From assembly GCF_003334765.1 (NCBI RefSeq), contig NZ_QOWT01000036.1: DNA of 40,009 nucleotides. The stretch is one strand, 5' to 3'. The notes beneath the pieces were generated by a model. That model did not search any database. It was not told the DNA's origin and saw nothing but the letters and a program-made list of their open reading frames with translations. The stretch comes from Escherichia coli. GTDB taxonomy: Bacteria; Pseudomonadota; Gammaproteobacteria; Enterobacterales; Enterobacteriaceae. The position numbers and the translations under genes are program-made. Positions 3,464 through 8,980 of this stretch are shown here, piece after piece; position 1 is the stretch's first letter, and the number at the start of each line of letters is the position of its first letter.

Positions 3464-4666
3464 GTGACGGCGTTAAAAGTAGGAAGTGAGAGCTGGTGGC
3501 AGTCGAAACATGGCCCGGAATGGCAGCGTCTGAATGACGAAATGTTTGAGGTCACTTTCTGGTGGCGTGATCCCCAAGGTTCTGAAGAATACTCGACGAT
3601 AAAGCGCGTATGGGTCTACATCACTGGTGTGACCGATCACCATCAGAACAGCCAGCCCCAGTCGATGCAGCGAATTGCAGGCACTAACGTCTGGCAGTGG
3701 ACGACACAACTCAATGCCAACTGGCGCGGCAGCTACTGCTTTATTCCCACCGAACGCGATGACATTTTTTCTGTACCATCCCCCGATCGCCTCGAATTGC
3801 GCGAAGGCTGGCGAAAACTATTACCCCAGGCGATAGCCGATCCGCTGAACCTACAAAGCTGGAAAGGCGGGCGAGGGCACGCTGTTTCTGCACTCGAAAT
3901 GCCGCAAGCGCCTCTGCAACCGGGATGGGATTGTCCGCAAGCGCCAGAAATACCTGCCAAAGAAATTATCTGGAAAAGTGAACGGTTGAAAAAGTCACGG
4001 CGTGTATGGATTTTTACCACCGGCGATGCAACAGCAGAAGAACGCCCGCTGGCAGTTTTGCTCGATGGCGAATTTTGGGCGCAAAGTATGCCCGTCTGGC
4101 CAGTGCTGACTTCGCTGACCCATCGTCAGCAACTTCCTCCCGCCGTGTATGTGTTGATCGACGCTATCGACACCACGCACCGCGCCCACGAACTGCCGTG
4201 TAATGCGGATTTCTGGCTCGCAGTACAGCAAGAGTTATTACCCCTGGTGAAAGCTATTGCCCCTTTTAGCGATCGTGCCGATCGCACCGTGGTTGCCGGG
4301 CAGAGTTTTGGTGGGCTTTCCGCGCTGTATGCCGGACTGCACTGGCCTGAACGCTTTGGCTGTGTATTAAGCCAGTCAGGATCGTACTGGTGGCCGCATC
4401 GGGGCGGGCAGCAAGAGGGCGTGTTACTTGAAAAGCTAAAAGCTGGTGAAGTTAGCGCCGAAGGTCTGCGCATTGTGCTGGAAGCGGGTATTCGCGAGCC
4501 GATGATCATGCGGGCCAATCAGGCGCTGTATGCGCAATTACACCCCATAAAAGAATCCATTTTCTGGCGTCAGGTTGACGGCGGACATGATGCGCTTTGT
4601 TGGCGCGGTGGCTTGATGCAGGGGCTAATCGACCTCTGGCAACCACTTTTCCATGACAGGAGTTGA
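3464..4666 (+). CDS. fes: Enterochelin (ferric enterobactin) esterase Fes; 400 aa from GTG at 3464, or 374 aa if the ATG at 3542 is used
   Basis: Translation matches Fes and contains the GQSFGG serine-hydrolase motif. The first codon at 3464 is GTG, preceded by a G-rich stretch (gggg at 3454-3457). The stop overlaps the ybdZ start region. Confidence 0.88.
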   Translation: MTALKVGSESWWQSKHGPEWQRLNDEMFEVTFWWRDPQGSEEYSTIKRVWVYITGVTDHHQNSQPQSMQRIAGTNVWQWTTQLNANWRGSYCFIPTERDDIFSVPSPDRLELREGWRKLLPQAIADPLNLQSWKGGRGHAVSALEMPQAPLQPGWDCPQAPEIPAKEIIWKSERLKKSRRVWIFTTGDATAEERPLAVLLDGEFWAQSMPVWPVLTSLTHRQQLPPAVYVLIDAIDTTHRAHELPCNADFWLAVQQELLPLVKAIAPFSDRADRTVVAGQSFGGLSALYAGLHWPERFGCVLSQSGSYWWPHRGGQQEGVLLEKLKAGEVSAEGLRIVLEAGIREPMIMRANQALYAQLHPIKESIFWRQVDGGHDALCWRGGLMQGLIDLWQPLFHDRS

Positions 4667-4668
4667 AT

Positions 4669-4887
4669 ATGGCATTCAGTAATCCCTTCGATGATCCGCA
4701 GGGAGCGTTTTACATATTGCGCAATGCGCAGGGGCAATTCAGTCTGTGGCCGCAACAATGCGTCTTACCGGCAGGCTGGGACATTGTGTGTCAGCCGCAG
4801 TCACAGGCGTCCTGCCAGCAGTGGCTGGAAGCCCACTGGCGTACTCTGACACCGACGAATTTTACCCAGTTGCAGGAGGCACAATGA
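4669..4887 (+). CDS. ybdZ: MbtH-like protein YbdZ (72 aa), accessory protein for the EntF adenylation domain
   Basis: MAFSNPFDDPQGAFYILRNAQGQFSLWPQQ... is an MbtH-like fold with conserved Trp residues. Its start lies 2 bp after the fes stop, and its stop overlaps the entF ATG (atga at 4884-4887). Confidence 0.9.
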   Translation: MAFSNPFDDPQGAFYILRNAQGQFSLWPQQCVLPAGWDIVCQPQSQASCQQWLEAHWRTLTPTNFTQLQEAQ

Positions 4888-7800
4888 GCCAGCATTTACC
4901 TTTGGTCGCCGCACAGCCCGGCATCTGGATGGCAGAAAAACTGTCAGAATTACCCTCCGCCTGGAGCGTGGCGCATTACGTTGAGTTAACCGGAGAGGTT
5001 GATTCGCCATTACTGGCCCGCGCGGTGGTTGCCGGACTAGCGCAAGCAGATACGCTGCGGATGCGTTTTACGGAAGATAACGGCGAAGTCTGGCAGTGGG
5101 TCGATGATGCGCTGACGTTCGAACTGCCAGAAATTATCGACCTACGAACCAACATTGATCCGCACGGTACTGCGCAGGCATTAATGCAGGCGGATTTGCA
5201 ACAAGATCTGCGCGTCGATAGCGGTAAACCACTGGTCTTTCATCAGCTGATACAGGTGGCGGATAACCGCTGGTACTGGTATCAGCGTTATCACCATTTG
5301 CTGGTCGATGGCTTTAGTTTCCCGGCCATTACCCGCCAGATCGCCAATATTTACTGCACATGGCTGCGTGGCGAACCAACGCCGGCTTCGCCATTTACGC
5401 CTTTCGCTGATGTAGTGGAAGAGTACCAGCAATACCGCGAAAGCGAAGCCTGGCAGCGTGATGCGGCATTCTGGGCAGAACAGCGTCGTCAACTGCCGCC
5501 GCCCGCGTCACTTTCTCCGGCACCTTTACCGGGGCGCAGCGCCTCGGCAGATATTCTGCGCCTGAAACTGGAATTTACCGACGGGGAATTCCGCCAGCTG
5601 GCTACGCAACTTTCAGGTGTGCAGCGTACCGATTTAGCCCTTGCGCTGGCAGCCTTGTGGCTGGGGCGATTGTGCAATCGTATGGACTACGCCGCCGGAT
5701 TTATCTTTATGCGTCGACTGGGCTCGGCGGCGCTGACGGCTACCGGACCCGTGCTCAACGTTTTGCCGTTGGGTATTCACATTGCGGCGCAAGAAACGCT
5801 GCCGGAACTGGCAACCCGACTGGCAGCACAACTGAAAAAAATGCGTCGTCATCAACGTTACGATGCCGAACAAATTGTCCGTGACAGCGGGCGAGCGGCA
5901 GGTGATGAACCGCTGTTTGGTCCGGTACTCAATATCAAGGTATTTGATTACCAACTGGATATTCCTGATGTTCAGGCGCAAACCCATACCCTGGCAACCG
6001 GTCCGGTTAATGACCTTGAACTGGCCCTGTTCCCGGATGTACACGGTGATTTGAGTATTGAGATCCTCGCCAATAAACAGCGTTACGATGAGCCAACGTT
6101 AATCCAGCATGCTGAACGCCTGAAAATGCTGATTGCCCAGTTCGCCGCGGATCCGGCGCTGTTGTGCGGCGATGTCGATATTATGCTGCCAGGTGAGTAT
6201 GCGCAGCTGGCGCAGCTCAACGCCACTCAGGTTGAGATTCCAGAAACCACGCTTAGCGCGCTGGTGGCAGAACAAGCGGCAAAAACACCGGATGCTCCGG
6301 CGCTGGCAGATGCGCGTTACCTGTTCAGCTATCGGGAAATGCGCGAGCAGGTGGTGGCGCTGGCGAATCTGCTGCGTGAGCGCGGCGTTAAACCAGGGGA
6401 CAGCGTGGCGGTGGCACTACCGCGCTCGGTCTTTTTGACCCTGGCACTCCATGCGATAGTTGAAGCTGGAGCGGCCTGGCTACCGCTGGATACCGGCTAT
6501 CCGGACGATCGCCTGAAAATGATGCTGGAAGATGCGCGTCCGTCGCTGTTAATTACCACCGACGATCAACTGCCGCGCTTTAGCGATGTTCCCAATTTAA
6601 CAAGCCTTTGCTATAACGCCCCGCTTACACCGCAGGGCAGTGCGCCGCTGCAACTTTCACAACCGCATCACACGGCTTATATCATCTTTACCTCTGGCTC
6701 CACCGGCAGGCCGAAAGGGGTAATGGTCGGGCAGACGGCTATCGTCAACCGCCTGCTTTGGATGCAAAATCATTATCCGCTTACAGGCGAAGATGTCGTT
6801 GCCCAAAAAACGCCGTGCAGTTTTGATGTCTCGGTGTGGGAGTTTTTCTGGCCGTTTATCGCAGGGGCAAAACTGGTGATGGCTGAACCGGAAGCGCACC
6901 GCGACCCGCTCGCTATGCAGCAATTCTTTGCCGAATATGGCGTAACGACCACGCACTTTGTGCCGTCGATGCTGGCGGCATTTGTTGCCTCGCTGACGCC
7001 GCAAACCGCTCGCCAGAGTTGCGCGACGTTGAAACAGGTTTTCTGTAGTGGTGAGGCCTTACCGGCTGATTTATGCCGCGAATGGCAACAGTTAACTGGC
7101 GCGCCGTTGCATAATCTATATGGCCCGACGGAAGCGGCGGTAGATGTCAGCTGGTATCCGGCTTTTGGCGAGGAACTGGCACAGGTGCGCGGCAGCAGTG
7201 TGCCGATTGGTTATCCGGTATGGAATACGGGTCTGCGTATTCTTGATGCGATGATGCATCCGGTGCCGCCGGGTGTGGCGGGTGATCTCTATCTCACTGG
7301 CATTCAACTGGCGCAGGGCTATCTCGGACGCCCCGATCTGACCGCCAGCCGCTTTATTGCCGATCCTTTTGCCCCAGGTGAACGGATGTACCGTACCGGA
7401 GACGTTGCCCGCTGGCTGGATAACGGCGCGGTGGAGTACCTCGGGCGCAGTGATGATCAGCTAAAAATTCGCGGGCAGCGTATCGAACTGGGCGAAATCG
7501 ATCGCGTGATGCAGGCGCTGCCGGATGTCGAACAAGCCGTTACCCACGCCTGTGTGATTAACCAGGCGGCTGCCACCGGTGGTGATGCGCGTCAATTGGT
7601 GGGCTATCTGGTGTCGCAATCGGGCCTGCCGTTGGATACCAGCGCATTGCAGGCGCAGCTTCGTGAAACATTGCCACCACATATGGTACCGGTGGTTCTG
7701 CTGCAACTTCCACAGTTACCACTTAGCGCCAACGGCAAGCTGGATCGCAAAGCCTTACCGTTGCCTGAACTGAAGGCACAAGCGCCAGGGCGTGCGCCGA

Positions 7801-8765
7801 AAGCGGGCAGTGAAACGATTATCGCCGCGGCATTCTCGTCGTTGCTGGGGTGTGACGTGCAGGATGCCGATGCTGATTTCTTCGCGCTTGGCGGTCATTC
7901 GCTACTGGCAATGAAACTGGCAGCGCAGTTAAGTCGGCAGGTTGCCCGCCAGGTGACGCCGGGGCAAGTGATGGTCGCGTCAACTGTCGCCAAACTGGCA
8001 ACGATTATTGATGCTGAAGAAGACAGCACCCGGCGTATGGGATTCGAAACCATTCTGCCGTTGCGTGAAGGTAATGGCCCGACGCTGTTTTGTTTCCATC
8101 CTGCGTCCGGTTTTGCCTGGCAGTTCAGCGTGCTCTCGCGTTATCTCGATCCACAATGGTCGATTATCGGCATTCAGTCACCGCGCCCCAATGGCCCCAT
8201 GCAGACGGCGGCAAACCTGGATGAAGTCTGCGAAGCGCATCTGGCAACGTTACTTGAACAACAACCGCATGGCCCTTATTACCTGCTGGGGTATTCCCTT
8301 GGCGGTACGCTGGCGCAGGGTATTGCGGCGCGACTGCGTGCCCGTGGCGAACAGGTGGCATTTCTTGGCTTGCTGGATACCTGGCCGCCAGAAACGCAAA
8401 ACTGGCAGGAAAAAGAAGCTAATGGTCTGGACCCGGAAGTGCTGGCGGAGATTAACCGCGAACGCGAGGCCTTCCTGGCAGCACAGCAGGGAAGTACTTC
8501 AACGGAGTTGTTTACCACCATTGAAGGCAACTACGCTGATGCTGTGCGCCTGCTGACGACTGCTCATAGCGTACCGTTTGACGGTAAAGCGACGCTGTTT
8601 GTTGCTGAACGCACACTTCAGGAAGGTATGAGTCCCGAACGCGCCTGGTCGCCGTGGATAGCGGAGCTGGATATCTATCGTCAGGATTGTGCGCATGTGG
8701 ATATTATCTCTCCAGGGACGTTTGAAAAAATTGGGCCGATTATTCGCGCAACGCTAAACAGGTAA
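4884..8765 (+). CDS. entF: Enterobactin synthase component F, non-ribosomal peptide synthetase EntF (C-A-PCP-TE, 1293 aa)
   Basis: Starts MSQHLPLVAAQPGIWMAEKL; carries the adenylation core FTSGSTGRPKG, the carrier-protein motif LGGHSL and the thioesterase GYSLGG. The 1339-aa ORF in the track is over-extended upstream. Confidence 0.95.
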   Translation: MSQHLPLVAAQPGIWMAEKLSELPSAWSVAHYVELTGEVDSPLLARAVVAGLAQADTLRMRFTEDNGEVWQWVDDALTFELPEIIDLRTNIDPHGTAQALMQADLQQDLRVDSGKPLVFHQLIQVADNRWYWYQRYHHLLVDGFSFPAITRQIANIYCTWLRGEPTPASPFTPFADVVEEYQQYRESEAWQRDAAFWAEQRRQLPPPASLSPAPLPGRSASADILRLKLEFTDGEFRQLATQLSGVQRTDLALALAALWLGRLCNRMDYAAGFIFMRRLGSAALTATGPVLNVLPLGIHIAAQETLPELATRLAAQLKKMRRHQRYDAEQIVRDSGRAAGDEPLFGPVLNIKVFDYQLDIPDVQAQTHTLATGPVNDLELALFPDVHGDLSIEILANKQRYDEPTLIQHAERLKMLIAQFAADPALLCGDVDIMLPGEYAQLAQLNATQVEIPETTLSALVAEQAAKTPDAPALADARYLFSYREMREQVVALANLLRERGVKPGDSVAVALPRSVFLTLALHAIVEAGAAWLPLDTGYPDDRLKMMLEDARPSLLITTDDQLPRFSDVPNLTSLCYNAPLTPQGSAPLQLSQPHHTAYIIFTSGSTGRPKGVMVGQTAIVNRLLWMQNHYPLTGEDVVAQKTPCSFDVSVWEFFWPFIAGAKLVMAEPEAHRDPLAMQQFFAEYGVTTTHFVPSMLAAFVASLTPQTARQSCATLKQVFCSGEALPADLCREWQQLTGAPLHNLYGPTEAAVDVSWYPAFGEELAQVRGSSVPIGYPVWNTGLRILDAMMHPVPPGVAGDLYLTGIQLAQGYLGRPDLTASRFIADPFAPGERMYRTGDVARWLDNGAVEYLGRSDDQLKIRGQRIELGEIDRVMQALPDVEQAVTHACVINQAAATGGDARQLVGYLVSQSGLPLDTSALQAQLRETLPPHMVPVVLLQLPQLPLSANGKLDRKALPLPELKAQAPGRAPKAGSETIIAAAFSSLLGCDVQDADADFFALGGHSLLAMKLAAQLSRQVARQVTPGQVMVASTVAKLATIIDAEEDSTRRMGFETILPLREGNGPTLFCFHPASGFAWQFSVLSRYLDPQWSIIGIQSPRPNGPMQTAANLDEVCEAHLATLLEQQPHGPYYLLGYSLGGTLAQGIAARLRARGEQVAFLGLLDTWPPETQNWQEKEANGLDPEVLAEINREREAFLAAQQGSTSTELFTTIEGNYADAVRLLTTAHSVPFDGKATLFVAERTLQEGMSPERAWSPWIAELDIYRQDCAHVDIISPGTFEKIGPIIRATLNR

Positions 8766-8780
8766 ATTAATATTATTTAT

Positions 8781-8818
8781 AAACCCATAATTACAGAAAA
8801 TAATTATGGGTTTTTTAT
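8781..8818 (+). terminator. Rho-independent terminator after entF
   Basis: Stem cccataatta (8784-8793) pairs with taattatggg (8801-8810), followed by a tttttt run, 16 bp after the entF stop. Confidence 0.6.
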
Positions 8819-8980
8819 TTGTTTGATTTATAGGTTTGATGAATATTTCTCTTAAATAGAGTGAATGTTGCATTCAGTGGAAGGAATTTACAAACTTCAG
8901 CTTCGGATAATTATCACCAACTGGTAAAGTGAGCGCCGTGGAGATTTCCCCCTATTGGACTCATTTTCAGGTTATACCCC

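Follow-up and report, generated by a model that had tools for sequence, protein, structure and literature searches.

How far is the translation of the small gene ybdZ tied to that of its neighbors fes and entF in the enterobactin operon of Escherichia coli? We considered this question in a stretch of 40,009 nucleotides of E. coli DNA (contig NZ_QOWT01000036.1), which we refer to as the window. An earlier note on this DNA claimed that ybdZ is translationally coupled on both sides, to fes upstream and to entF downstream, and that this arrangement would give near-stoichiometric production of an MbtH-like protein (MLP) and its NRPS partner.

Layout of the fes, ybdZ, and entF genes

All three genes are encoded on the plus strand. 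The ORF list, RefSeq annotation, and NCBIfam agree on fes, the gene for enterochelin esterase, at positions 3464 to 4666 (400 aa, GTG start, TGA stop at 4664 to 4666); its protein scores 703 bits against the NCBIfam equivalog NF007758, for which the cut-off is 222. The 72-aa MLP gene ybdZ spans 4669 to 4887, as supported by its translation, Pfam, and a PDB match. The gene entF, identified by its open frame, RefSeq, and NCBIfam, spans 4884 to 8765 and encodes the 1293-aa NRPS termination module (C-A-PCP-TE) that is the partner of YbdZ (2812 bits against the NCBIfam equivalog NF007605, cut-off 2400). Base-by-base reading at gacAGGAGtTGAatATGgca puts the fes stop codon TGA at 4664 to 4666, two further bases at 4667 to 4668, and the ybdZ ATG at 4669 to 4671, forming a TGA-at-ATG junction with a 2-nt gap (4664 to 4671, plus strand). 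The same reading at gcAGGAGGcacaATGAgcc places the entF ATG at 4884 to 4886 and the ybdZ stop codon TGA at 4885 to 4887, forming an ATGA junction with a 4-nt stop/start overlap (4884 to 4887, plus strand). The ORF list and RefSeq give both junctions identically; therefore, the positions that the earlier note assigned to the fes stop, the ybdZ ATG, and the ATGA overlap are exact to the base, and its naming of the genes as fes, ybdZ (MbtH-like), and entF (NRPS) is correct according to RefSeq, NCBIfam, and Pfam.

The same layout is found well beyond this isolate. In the RefSeq annotation of MG1655, fes occupies 612737 to 613939, ybdZ 613942 to 614160, and entF 614157 to 618038, which corresponds to distances of +2 and -4 nt. 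Identity between the window and MG1655 is 99.955%, and the surroundings of the junctions show no differences. RefSeq annotation of UTI89, one ETEC strain, and one pig isolate gives an identical fes/ybdZ/entF layout, and 5,317 of 5,414 E. coli genomes share the exact 61-mer across the fes-ybdZ junction. A published genome-wide table of distances between E. coli genes likewise gives both values, +2 and -4. The junctions are thus already known, from the reference annotation as well as from that genome-wide table, and fes-ybdZ-entF is a known segment of the iron-regulated E. coli enterobactin operon.

The operon has been named fes-ybdZ-entF-fepE, with RNA levels that co-vary (PMC8910356). A consensus scan of positions 3464 to 4900 detected neither promoter-like nor terminator-like sites, and on this basis we set aside the idea of an internal promoter in the fes-entF interval. 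The shared strand, the scan, and the operon name in the literature are together consistent with a single transcript carrying the three genes. The scan detected a terminator-like element 16 nt past the entF stop, a 13-bp hairpin with a T run behind it (8781 to 8813, plus strand). This predicted hairpin is likely to be the 3' boundary, or an attenuation point, of the fes-ybdZ-entF message before fepE.

YbdZ has the hallmarks of an MLP. Residues 4 to 54 constitute the Pfam PF03621 core (E = 4.9e-21), and homologues of YbdZ bear precomputed PF03621 matches. The MLP signature includes three conserved tryptophans (PMC10510592), and W27, W37, and W52 are invariant in our 13-sequence protein alignment. 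In addition, residues 1 to 72 match chain B of PDB 5JA1, the crystal structure of the YbdZ-EntF complex, over the full length (E = 3.2e-48). Given this match and the position of entF directly downstream, YbdZ is both encoded beside an NRPS adenylation (A) domain and bound to it. MLPs bind the A domain 1:1 and make their NRPS partners more soluble and more active (PMC7593251, PMC10510592), and the best MLP:A-domain ratio is likewise 1:1 (PMC7593251).

Spacing, ribosome-binding sites, and possible reinitiation

Coupling by termination-reinitiation has been demonstrated for other E. coli gene pairs at stop-to-start distances of -8 to +10 nt (PMC6728339, PMC10666635), and both junctions described here lie within about that range. 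Among native E. coli pairs at -4 nt, four of five were coupled by termination-reinitiation, the exception being bioBF, and removal of the Shine-Dalgarno (SD) sequence cut reinitiation substantially in four of the five pairs tested (PMC6728339). A gap of at least 20 nt nearly abolishes reinitiation in tested pairs.

The spacing of the three genes is ordinary. Distances of -8 to +6 nt separate 707 of 2,987 unidirectional E. coli gene pairs (approximately 24%), with -4 as the commonest single value (PMC10666635), and the same range covers 7 of the 22 same-strand pairs in the window when distances are derived from RefSeq annotation. The close fes-ybdZ-entF spacing is therefore a typical operon layout, not an unusual one. 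Subunits of heteromeric complexes are enriched 4.5-fold among short-distance pairs (PMC10666635). Because the layout is so common, linked translation is plausible, and neither coupling nor equal protein output is shown by the layout. Ribosome profiling indicates that overlapping ORF pairs differ in relative translation about as widely as pairs without an overlap do (PMC5318159); near-stoichiometric production of YbdZ and EntF, as proposed earlier, does not follow from an overlap and finds no support in the sequence. In the literature that we searched, we found no explicit treatment of translational coupling for ybdZ-entF or for MLP-NRPS pairs; the searches yielded just the names of operons and a single mention that was unrelated.

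At both junctions, the SD sequence of the downstream gene lies inside the coding end of the upstream gene. The ybdZ SD, AGGAG (4658 to 4662, plus strand), is 6 nt before the ATG and, in Escherichia, falls within the final fes codons (D-R-S-stop); its anti-SD duplex energy of -6.9 kcal/mol is reached by only 2% of 4,810 internal coding positions of fes and entF. The entF SD, AGGAGG (4874 to 4879, plus strand), is 4 nt before the ATG, in ybdZ codons 69 to 71 (Q-E-A). Its duplex energy of -10.3 kcal/mol is the strongest among the 34 gene starts in the window and is reached by none of the 4,810 internal positions, for which the median is -2.5 kcal/mol. The SD motifs before ybdZ and entF are not chance occurrences.

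Folds of the regions from -99 to +30 predicted no masking RNA structure at the ybdZ or entF start. Both regions folded no better than shuffled controls (z = +0.67 for entF and +0.82 for ybdZ), and the SD and start codon are mostly unpaired in the centroid structures at both junctions. The mean unpaired probabilities of the start regions, 0.51 for ybdZ and 0.41 for entF, lie in the middle of the range for the window's 34 genes. These results bear on a mechanism that is classical for several E. coli pairs (PMC6728339), in which the downstream start, here that of entF or ybdZ, is hidden in a hairpin and opened only by translation of the upstream gene. With pairing over a range of up to 100 nt considered, no stable fold was predicted, and we rejected this mechanism as highly improbable for either junction.

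Because both SDs are strong and lie in RNA predicted to be unstructured, ybdZ and entF could equally well be initiated independently. De novo initiation at the downstream starts is thus predicted not to be limited, a prediction that still leaves room for partial coupling. It is possible, although we are inclined to doubt it, that there is no functional coupling here, that ybdZ and entF are translated mainly from their own strong, accessible SDs, and that the junctions are neutral products of operon compaction and stop-codon drift. The variability of overlapping pairs in ribosome profiling and the lack of coupling in bioBF, despite its distance of -4, would both fit such a history. However, the majority of tested E. 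coli pairs at -4 are coupled, and a ribosome elongating on the last ybdZ codons would cover the entF start, which would make some interplay unavoidable.

Conservation of the junctions and probable coordinated synthesis

We compared the junctions in 18 fes-MbtH-entF loci across Enterobacterales, 12 of which are from outside Escherichia. A contig scan gave 11 close relatives and a word-index protein search gave near relatives only; the wider diversity came from an exhaustive representative search combined with contig look-ups. The order of MLP gene followed by entF is kept in all 18 enterobactin-type loci, and the ybdZ-entF distance ranges from -8 to +9 nt in all of them. The ATGA is invariant in 11 aligned sequences, and 4 of the 12 non-Escherichia loci have a distance of +1 to +9 nt instead of an overlap. 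The entF SD is kept in every Escherichia and Citrobacter sequence compared, and in 10 of the 12 non-Escherichia loci, entF is preceded by an SD-like motif with a duplex energy between -5.8 and -10.3 kcal/mol, the exceptions being L012 (-4.0) and L017 (-3.6). In the protein alignment, YbdZ is variable in both sequence and length beyond P62, and this tail carries the entF ribosome-binding site. As far as can be read from these alignments, the variable C-terminal tail of YbdZ doubles as the putative ribosome-binding site of entF, which is a modest new point. A distance that stays within -8 to +9 nt while the tail changes freely suggests a constraint on proximity itself and argues against purely neutral origins for this junction.

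The fes-ybdZ junction has a different history. The +2 gap is found only in Escherichia, and the distance in other genera is -14 or +12 to +98 nt. An alignment of nine sequences revealed that approximately 25 nt of the Citrobacter fes-ybdZ spacer are absent from Escherichia, with the result that the fes frame extends through the conserved ybdZ ribosome-binding site. Nine aligned sequences, from nine genera or species, have the ACAGGAG core before ybdZ, and the A-GGAG columns are invariant. A conserved SD block behind so variable a distance is what would be expected if ybdZ were translated without functional coupling to fes. From these comparisons, the two junctions appear to differ in history, the ybdZ-entF junction being conserved across Enterobacterales and the fes-ybdZ +2 gap being specific to Escherichia, and this too is a modest new point. 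In MLP loci that are more distantly related, a 4-nt overlap joins the MLP gene to an NRPS gene upstream and to a glyoxalase or ABC transporter gene downstream; in one such locus, the MLP gene has no close neighbor. Because distant MLP genes overlap whatever adjoins them, including unrelated neighbors, tight junctions may reflect general operon compaction, again in keeping with neutral origins.

Two other readings of the region were examined and rejected. The first was a ybdZ start at the in-frame TTG at 4663, which would overlap fes as TTGA; such a start would leave no spacing from the SD, and other genera lack the TTG. The second was a frameshift that would fuse YbdZ and EntF as a conserved product. 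In E. coli, the entF frame already lies open from 4695 onward, and some assemblies contain chimeric YbdZ-EntF ORFs. Other genera do not share this open stretch, so the chimeric ORFs look like sequencing errors or pseudogenes.

Overall, we consider it probable, with some reservation, that YbdZ and EntF are synthesized in a coordinated manner, with part of entF translated by reinitiation and the rest de novo, and that the fes-ybdZ gap is a lineage-specific by-product. Reinitiation coupling, mainly at the ybdZ-entF junction, is plausible given the arrangement of stop, start, and SD. A ribosome ending ybdZ would halt with its stop codon over the entF ATG, and the AGGAGG upstream of entF could retain the small subunit; through this combination of overlap and retention, part of entF translation would probably proceed by termination-reinitiation. 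The remainder would probably come from fresh ribosome binding at the same strong SD. YbdZ and EntF would then be made coordinately from one mRNA, not necessarily in equimolar amounts, and YbdZ would be made first, near the emerging EntF A domain that it binds 1:1. The 2-nt fes-ybdZ gap may permit reinitiation; most ybdZ translation probably starts from the gene's own conserved SD, as it would have to in genera with gaps of 12 to 98 nt. The claim of coupling on both sides is partly supported. Its geometry is right, both distances lying within -8 to +10 nt; the coupling is what we infer from that geometry, and the two junctions are not alike, given that the fes-ybdZ gap is Escherichia-specific. 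Observations that run against coordinated synthesis by partial reinitiation include the one-third of non-Escherichia loci without overlap, the strong, unmasked entF SD, the uncoupled bioBF pair, and the genome-wide spread in relative translation of overlapping pairs.

The tight ybdZ-entF junction might also have been selected for local, ordered delivery and not for equal amounts. After its release at the 5' end of entF, on the mRNA shared by both genes, YbdZ would capture the nascent EntF A domain co-translationally, like a cis chaperone, and unbroken ribosome traffic would shield the 5.3-kb message from Rho-dependent polarity. The benefit of MLPs to the solubility and activity of the A-domain partners that they bind 1:1 is consistent with this idea, as are the conserved order and tight spacing in all 18 loci and the existence of natural fusions of an MLP with an A domain, SlgN1 (4GR4/4GR5) and ObiF1 (6N8E); co-translational complex formation is, moreover, a proposed benefit of overlapping pairs (PMC10666635). 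Nevertheless, we regard selection for local delivery as unlikely. YbdZ is not needed for EntF to be soluble, and in a strain that lacks ybdZ, ENT biosynthesis is promoted by PA2412, a non-cognate MLP (PMC7593251), which indicates that an MLP from another locus suffices and that cis delivery is not essential. Cross-talk of MLPs occurs among clusters (PMC10510592), and in other clusters the NRPS gene comes first and its MLP gene follows. We give similarly little credence to an extended version. In it, cis delivery would be the benefit for which ybdZ-entF proximity was selected, with every ribosome that starts entF having just released a YbdZ on that mRNA for co-translational loading onto the nascent A domain, and the loss of approximately 25 nt in Escherichia would additionally tie the module to fes translation.

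Comparison with known systems

If coupling were demonstrated, this locus would be a clean natural example of a small NRPS helper supplied in step with, and beside, a very large client, and it would be useful for the heterologous reconstruction of NRPS pathways, in which the yield of soluble, active synthetase is often limited by how much MLP is supplied. As it stands, the analysis adds little, the junctions having been annotated and tabulated and the layout being the commonest in E. coli operons.

The closest parallels are four E. coli pairs in which termination-reinitiation has been demonstrated by experiment, hyfH-hyfI, astD-astB, ydbH-ynbE, and menD-menH (Huber et al. 2019, 2023). Like ybdZ-entF, these are same-strand operon neighbors with a short overlap, an SD in the upstream coding end, and a distance within -8 to +10 nt. 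Coupling of those pairs was tested with premature-stop and SD mutants, whereas that of ybdZ-entF is predicted from sequence. With its exceptionally strong SD in unstructured RNA, entF is better placed for independent initiation than the downstream gene of a typical pair, and the table of Huber et al. itself marks ybdZ-entF as "not a complex." The bioB-bioF pair also resembles ybdZ-entF in having a 4-nt overlap inside a biosynthetic operon, yet it is uncoupled; overlap alone is therefore no proof of coupling. The SDs of the two downstream genes differ, with bioF initiating de novo despite a very weak SD and entF having a very strong one.

In SlgN1 and ObiF1, an MLP is paired 1:1 with an A domain, and YbdZ matches their MLP portions (E = 3e-10 and 5e-8, respectively). 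Stoichiometry in these fusions is fixed by a covalent link, whereas E. coli YbdZ and EntF are separate polypeptides, encoded in different frames and joined only by the ATGA. Within the window, fepD-fepG-fepC (-4 and -4) and entB-entA-entH (-1 and +2) each have a middle gene that is packed closely on both sides, as ybdZ is. However, FepD, FepG, and FepC all belong to a single ABC transporter as its subunits, EntB, EntA, and EntH are enzymes of the pathway, and none of them is a small accessory protein encoded before a 1293-aa partner.

The fes-ybdZ-entF locus and its transcription unit

The window is chromosomal E. coli DNA with 99.955% identity to K-12 MG1655 over 39.7 kb, and none of the 17 substitutions or the single 1-nt deletion that separate the two lies near the fes-ybdZ-entF junctions. 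Eight of the substitutions are grouped within ~840 bp of the citT-citG region (37477-38315), a cluster that may be a recombination patch, and the deletion falls in the citR-dsbG intergenic region (28432). The identities of the three genes are secure: Fes and EntF passed NCBIfam equivalog cut-offs, and YbdZ matched both the Pfam MbtH family (PF03621, residues 4-54, E = 4.9e-21) and, from end to end, the YbdZ chain in 5JA1, a crystal structure of EntF with YbdZ. The current annotation of fes uses a GTG start at 3464 and encodes 400 aa, 26 residues more than the older 374-aa version, whose start was withdrawn on mass-spectrometry evidence (PMC4512697).

The earlier note placed the fes stop (TGA, 4664-4666) two bases before the ybdZ ATG (4669) and the entF ATG in an ATGA shared with the ybdZ TGA (4884-4887); both placements are exact. 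RefSeq MG1655 has the same layout (fes 612737-613939, ybdZ 613942-614160, entF 614157-618038), as do the annotations of UTI89, one ETEC isolate, and one pig isolate. The distances, +2 nt (gap) for fes–ybdZ and -4 nt (overlap) for ybdZ–entF, are already listed in an E. coli gene-pair table (PMC10666635, supplementary file 3).

A sequence scan found no promoter-like or terminator-like sites between fes and entF, and the literature treats fes-ybdZ-entF-fepE as a single Fur-repressed operon with co-varying RNA levels (PMC8910356). A perfect 13-bp hairpin followed by a T run (8781-8813, + strand) begins 16 nt past the entF stop, and promoter-like hexamers occur at 8776-8804 and 8887-8914. Because these elements lie between entF and fepE (8981), fepE may be largely uncoupled from the other three genes, in agreement with RNA fold-changes that shrink along the operon (-5.04, -4.96, -3.10, -1.69; PMC8910356). 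The + strand fepE (end 10114) and the - strand fepC (end 10111) are convergent and overlap each other by 4 nt at the stop codons (10111-10114). Elsewhere in the window, Rfam matches at or above the gathering threshold were the rnk leader (34739-34847, - strand, 125 bits), the sRNA STnc70 (29433-29526, + strand, 42.7 bits), and ES036/CssrF (865-906, - strand, 40.5 bits).

Conservation of the two junctions

Of 5,426 complete E. coli genomes, 5,414 carry the region. A 61-mer spanning the fes–ybdZ junction is identical in 5,317 of these; the corresponding ybdZ–entF 61-mer is identical in 1,984 and carries one to three differences in 3,407, with AGGAGG and ATGA retained in all inspected variants. 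A 223-bp scaffold labelled Lactobacillus johnsonii ATCC 33200 (NZ_GG670150.1) also spans the ybdZ–entF junction; at the protein level it matches E. coli ybdZ with 98% identity, and it is almost certainly a contaminant from E. coli.

We compared 18 Enterobacterales loci with the gene order fes–MLP–entF (MLP, MbtH-like protein), in which the lowest MLP identity to YbdZ was 49%. Besides the window, these comprised five Escherichia loci (the cryptic-clade strains E1V33 and MOD1-EC7003, E. whittamii, E. albertii, and a divergent strain labelled E. coli) and 12 non-Escherichia loci (Citrobacter, Enterobacter, Mangrovibacter, Yokenella, Trabulsiella, Izhakiella, and six genome or metagenome contigs without assured taxonomy). 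The MLP–entF distance stays between -8 and +9 nt in all 18: it is -4 in all six Escherichia loci and, among the other 12, -4 (six loci), -8 (two), +1, +7, +8, and +9. Between fes and the MLP gene the spacing is +2 in every Escherichia locus and in no other, the remaining values being -14, +12, +12, +16, +18, +28, +30, +30, +33, +35, +40, and +98. This contrast indicates that the two junctions have different histories. In an alignment of 4590-4668 with loci L008, L015, and others, ~25 nt of the Citrobacter fes-ybdZ spacer are absent in all Escherichia species, so that the fes frame crosses the conserved core ACAGGAG (in E. coli, GACAGGAGTT) to end 2 nt short of the ATG; the Escherichia Fes C-terminus (…LWQPLFHDRS) is thus extended across the ybdZ Shine-Dalgarno (SD) site. 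The enterobacterial genome with the 98-nt spacer (GCA_015902465.1, 2403-2500) nevertheless keeps the ATGA overlap with entF, and its MLP has 61% identity to YbdZ, matching the figure reported for Salmonella ybdZ.

YbdZ is conserved to P62; beyond it, both the sequence and the length of the tail differ between loci, the whole protein measuring 67-73 aa. An SD-like purine run before entF is kept in 10 of the 12 non-Escherichia loci (-5.8 to -10.3 kcal/mol), with weaker duplexes in L012 (-4.0) and L017 (-3.6), and the tail's role as the entF ribosome-binding site seems no smaller than its role as protein. The E. coli entF reading frame is also open upstream of its ATG across most of ybdZ (4695-4883), and several public assemblies contain frameshifted YbdZ'-EntF chimeric ORFs (P0033, P0037, P0044). 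Other genera do not share this open stretch, so the chimeras are probably assembly errors or pseudogenes rather than products of a programmed YbdZ-EntF fusion.

Ribosome-binding sites and possible translational coupling

The ybdZ SD (AGGAG, 6 nt before the ATG) is predicted to pair with the 16S rRNA 3' end at -6.9 kcal/mol, and the entF SD (AGGAGG, 4 nt before the ATG) at -10.3 kcal/mol, the strongest among 34 gene starts in the window. These motifs are not random: across 4,810 internal positions of fes and entF, 2% reach -6.9 kcal/mol and none reaches -10.3. At neither junction does the -99 to +30 region form a more stable fold than shuffled controls (z = +0.67 and +0.82), which makes classical coupling by structure unmasking unlikely in these predictions. 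Both start sites are mostly unpaired in the predicted fold, with accessibility in the middle of the range for the window, so nothing would hinder binding of fresh ribosomes at ybdZ or entF.

Four of five native E. coli -4 overlaps are coupled by termination-reinitiation, and SD removal substantially lowers reinitiation in four of five pairs; bioBF shows no coupling (PMC6728339). By analogy with these pairs, ybdZ–entF reinitiation is plausible, and we lean toward substantial coupling. A +2 gap keeps 30-95% of reinitiation, which is nearly gone at ~20 nt (PMC10666635), and fes–ybdZ reinitiation is possible in Escherichia; in genera with gaps of 12-98 nt, the SD block before the MLP gene must act alone. 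Most likely, entF initiation would be mixed, combining reinitiation with de novo initiation, and ybdZ initiation largely SD-driven, giving coordinated but not necessarily equal output. The literature searched on ybdZ-entF and MLP-NRPS coupling contained no discussion of coupling at the ybdZ–entF junction.

Stoichiometry and spacing relative to other gene pairs

The earlier note read the arrangement as coupling that gives near-stoichiometric YbdZ and EntF. This reading is partly supported: the junctions have the sequence features of termination-reinitiation, but overlap does not predict equal synthesis, since in ribosome profiling relative translation of overlapping ORF pairs is about as variable as that of non-overlapping pairs (p = 0.06; PMC5318159). 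The non-cognate MLP PA2412 promotes enterobactin biosynthesis in a strain without ybdZ, EntF is soluble without YbdZ (PMC7593251), MLPs cross-talk between clusters (PMC10510592), and in more distant loci MLP genes overlap whatever neighbour they have by 4 nt or have no close neighbour at all. Near-stoichiometry is still a reasonable idea because YbdZ and EntF form a complex (5JA1), the optimal ratio of MLP to adenylation (A) domain is 1:1 (PMC7593251), MLP–A-domain fusions occur naturally (PMC10510592), and complex subunits are enriched among short-distance gene pairs (PMC10666635). That last study flags both fes–ybdZ and ybdZ–entF as "not a complex" ("CMPLX not"), a label open to question for YbdZ–EntF in view of the crystallised complex; the study's enrichment of complexes among overlapping pairs is therefore slightly conservative.

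A further reading, which we consider improbable, is that the conserved junction enforces co-translational loading of YbdZ in cis onto the growing EntF.

Tight spacing around ybdZ is not unusual. Spacings of -8 to +6 nt occur in 707 of 2,987 same-strand E. coli pairs (24%), the commonest single distance being -4 (ATGA) (PMC10666635); by annotated coordinates, the same range holds for 7 of 22 same-strand pairs in the window. Like ybdZ, fepG (-4 and -4) and entA (-1 and +2) have tight junctions on both sides, and, in what is the best-annotated of bacterial genomes, the fes-ybdZ-entF arrangement is an already known, textbook-type operon junction.
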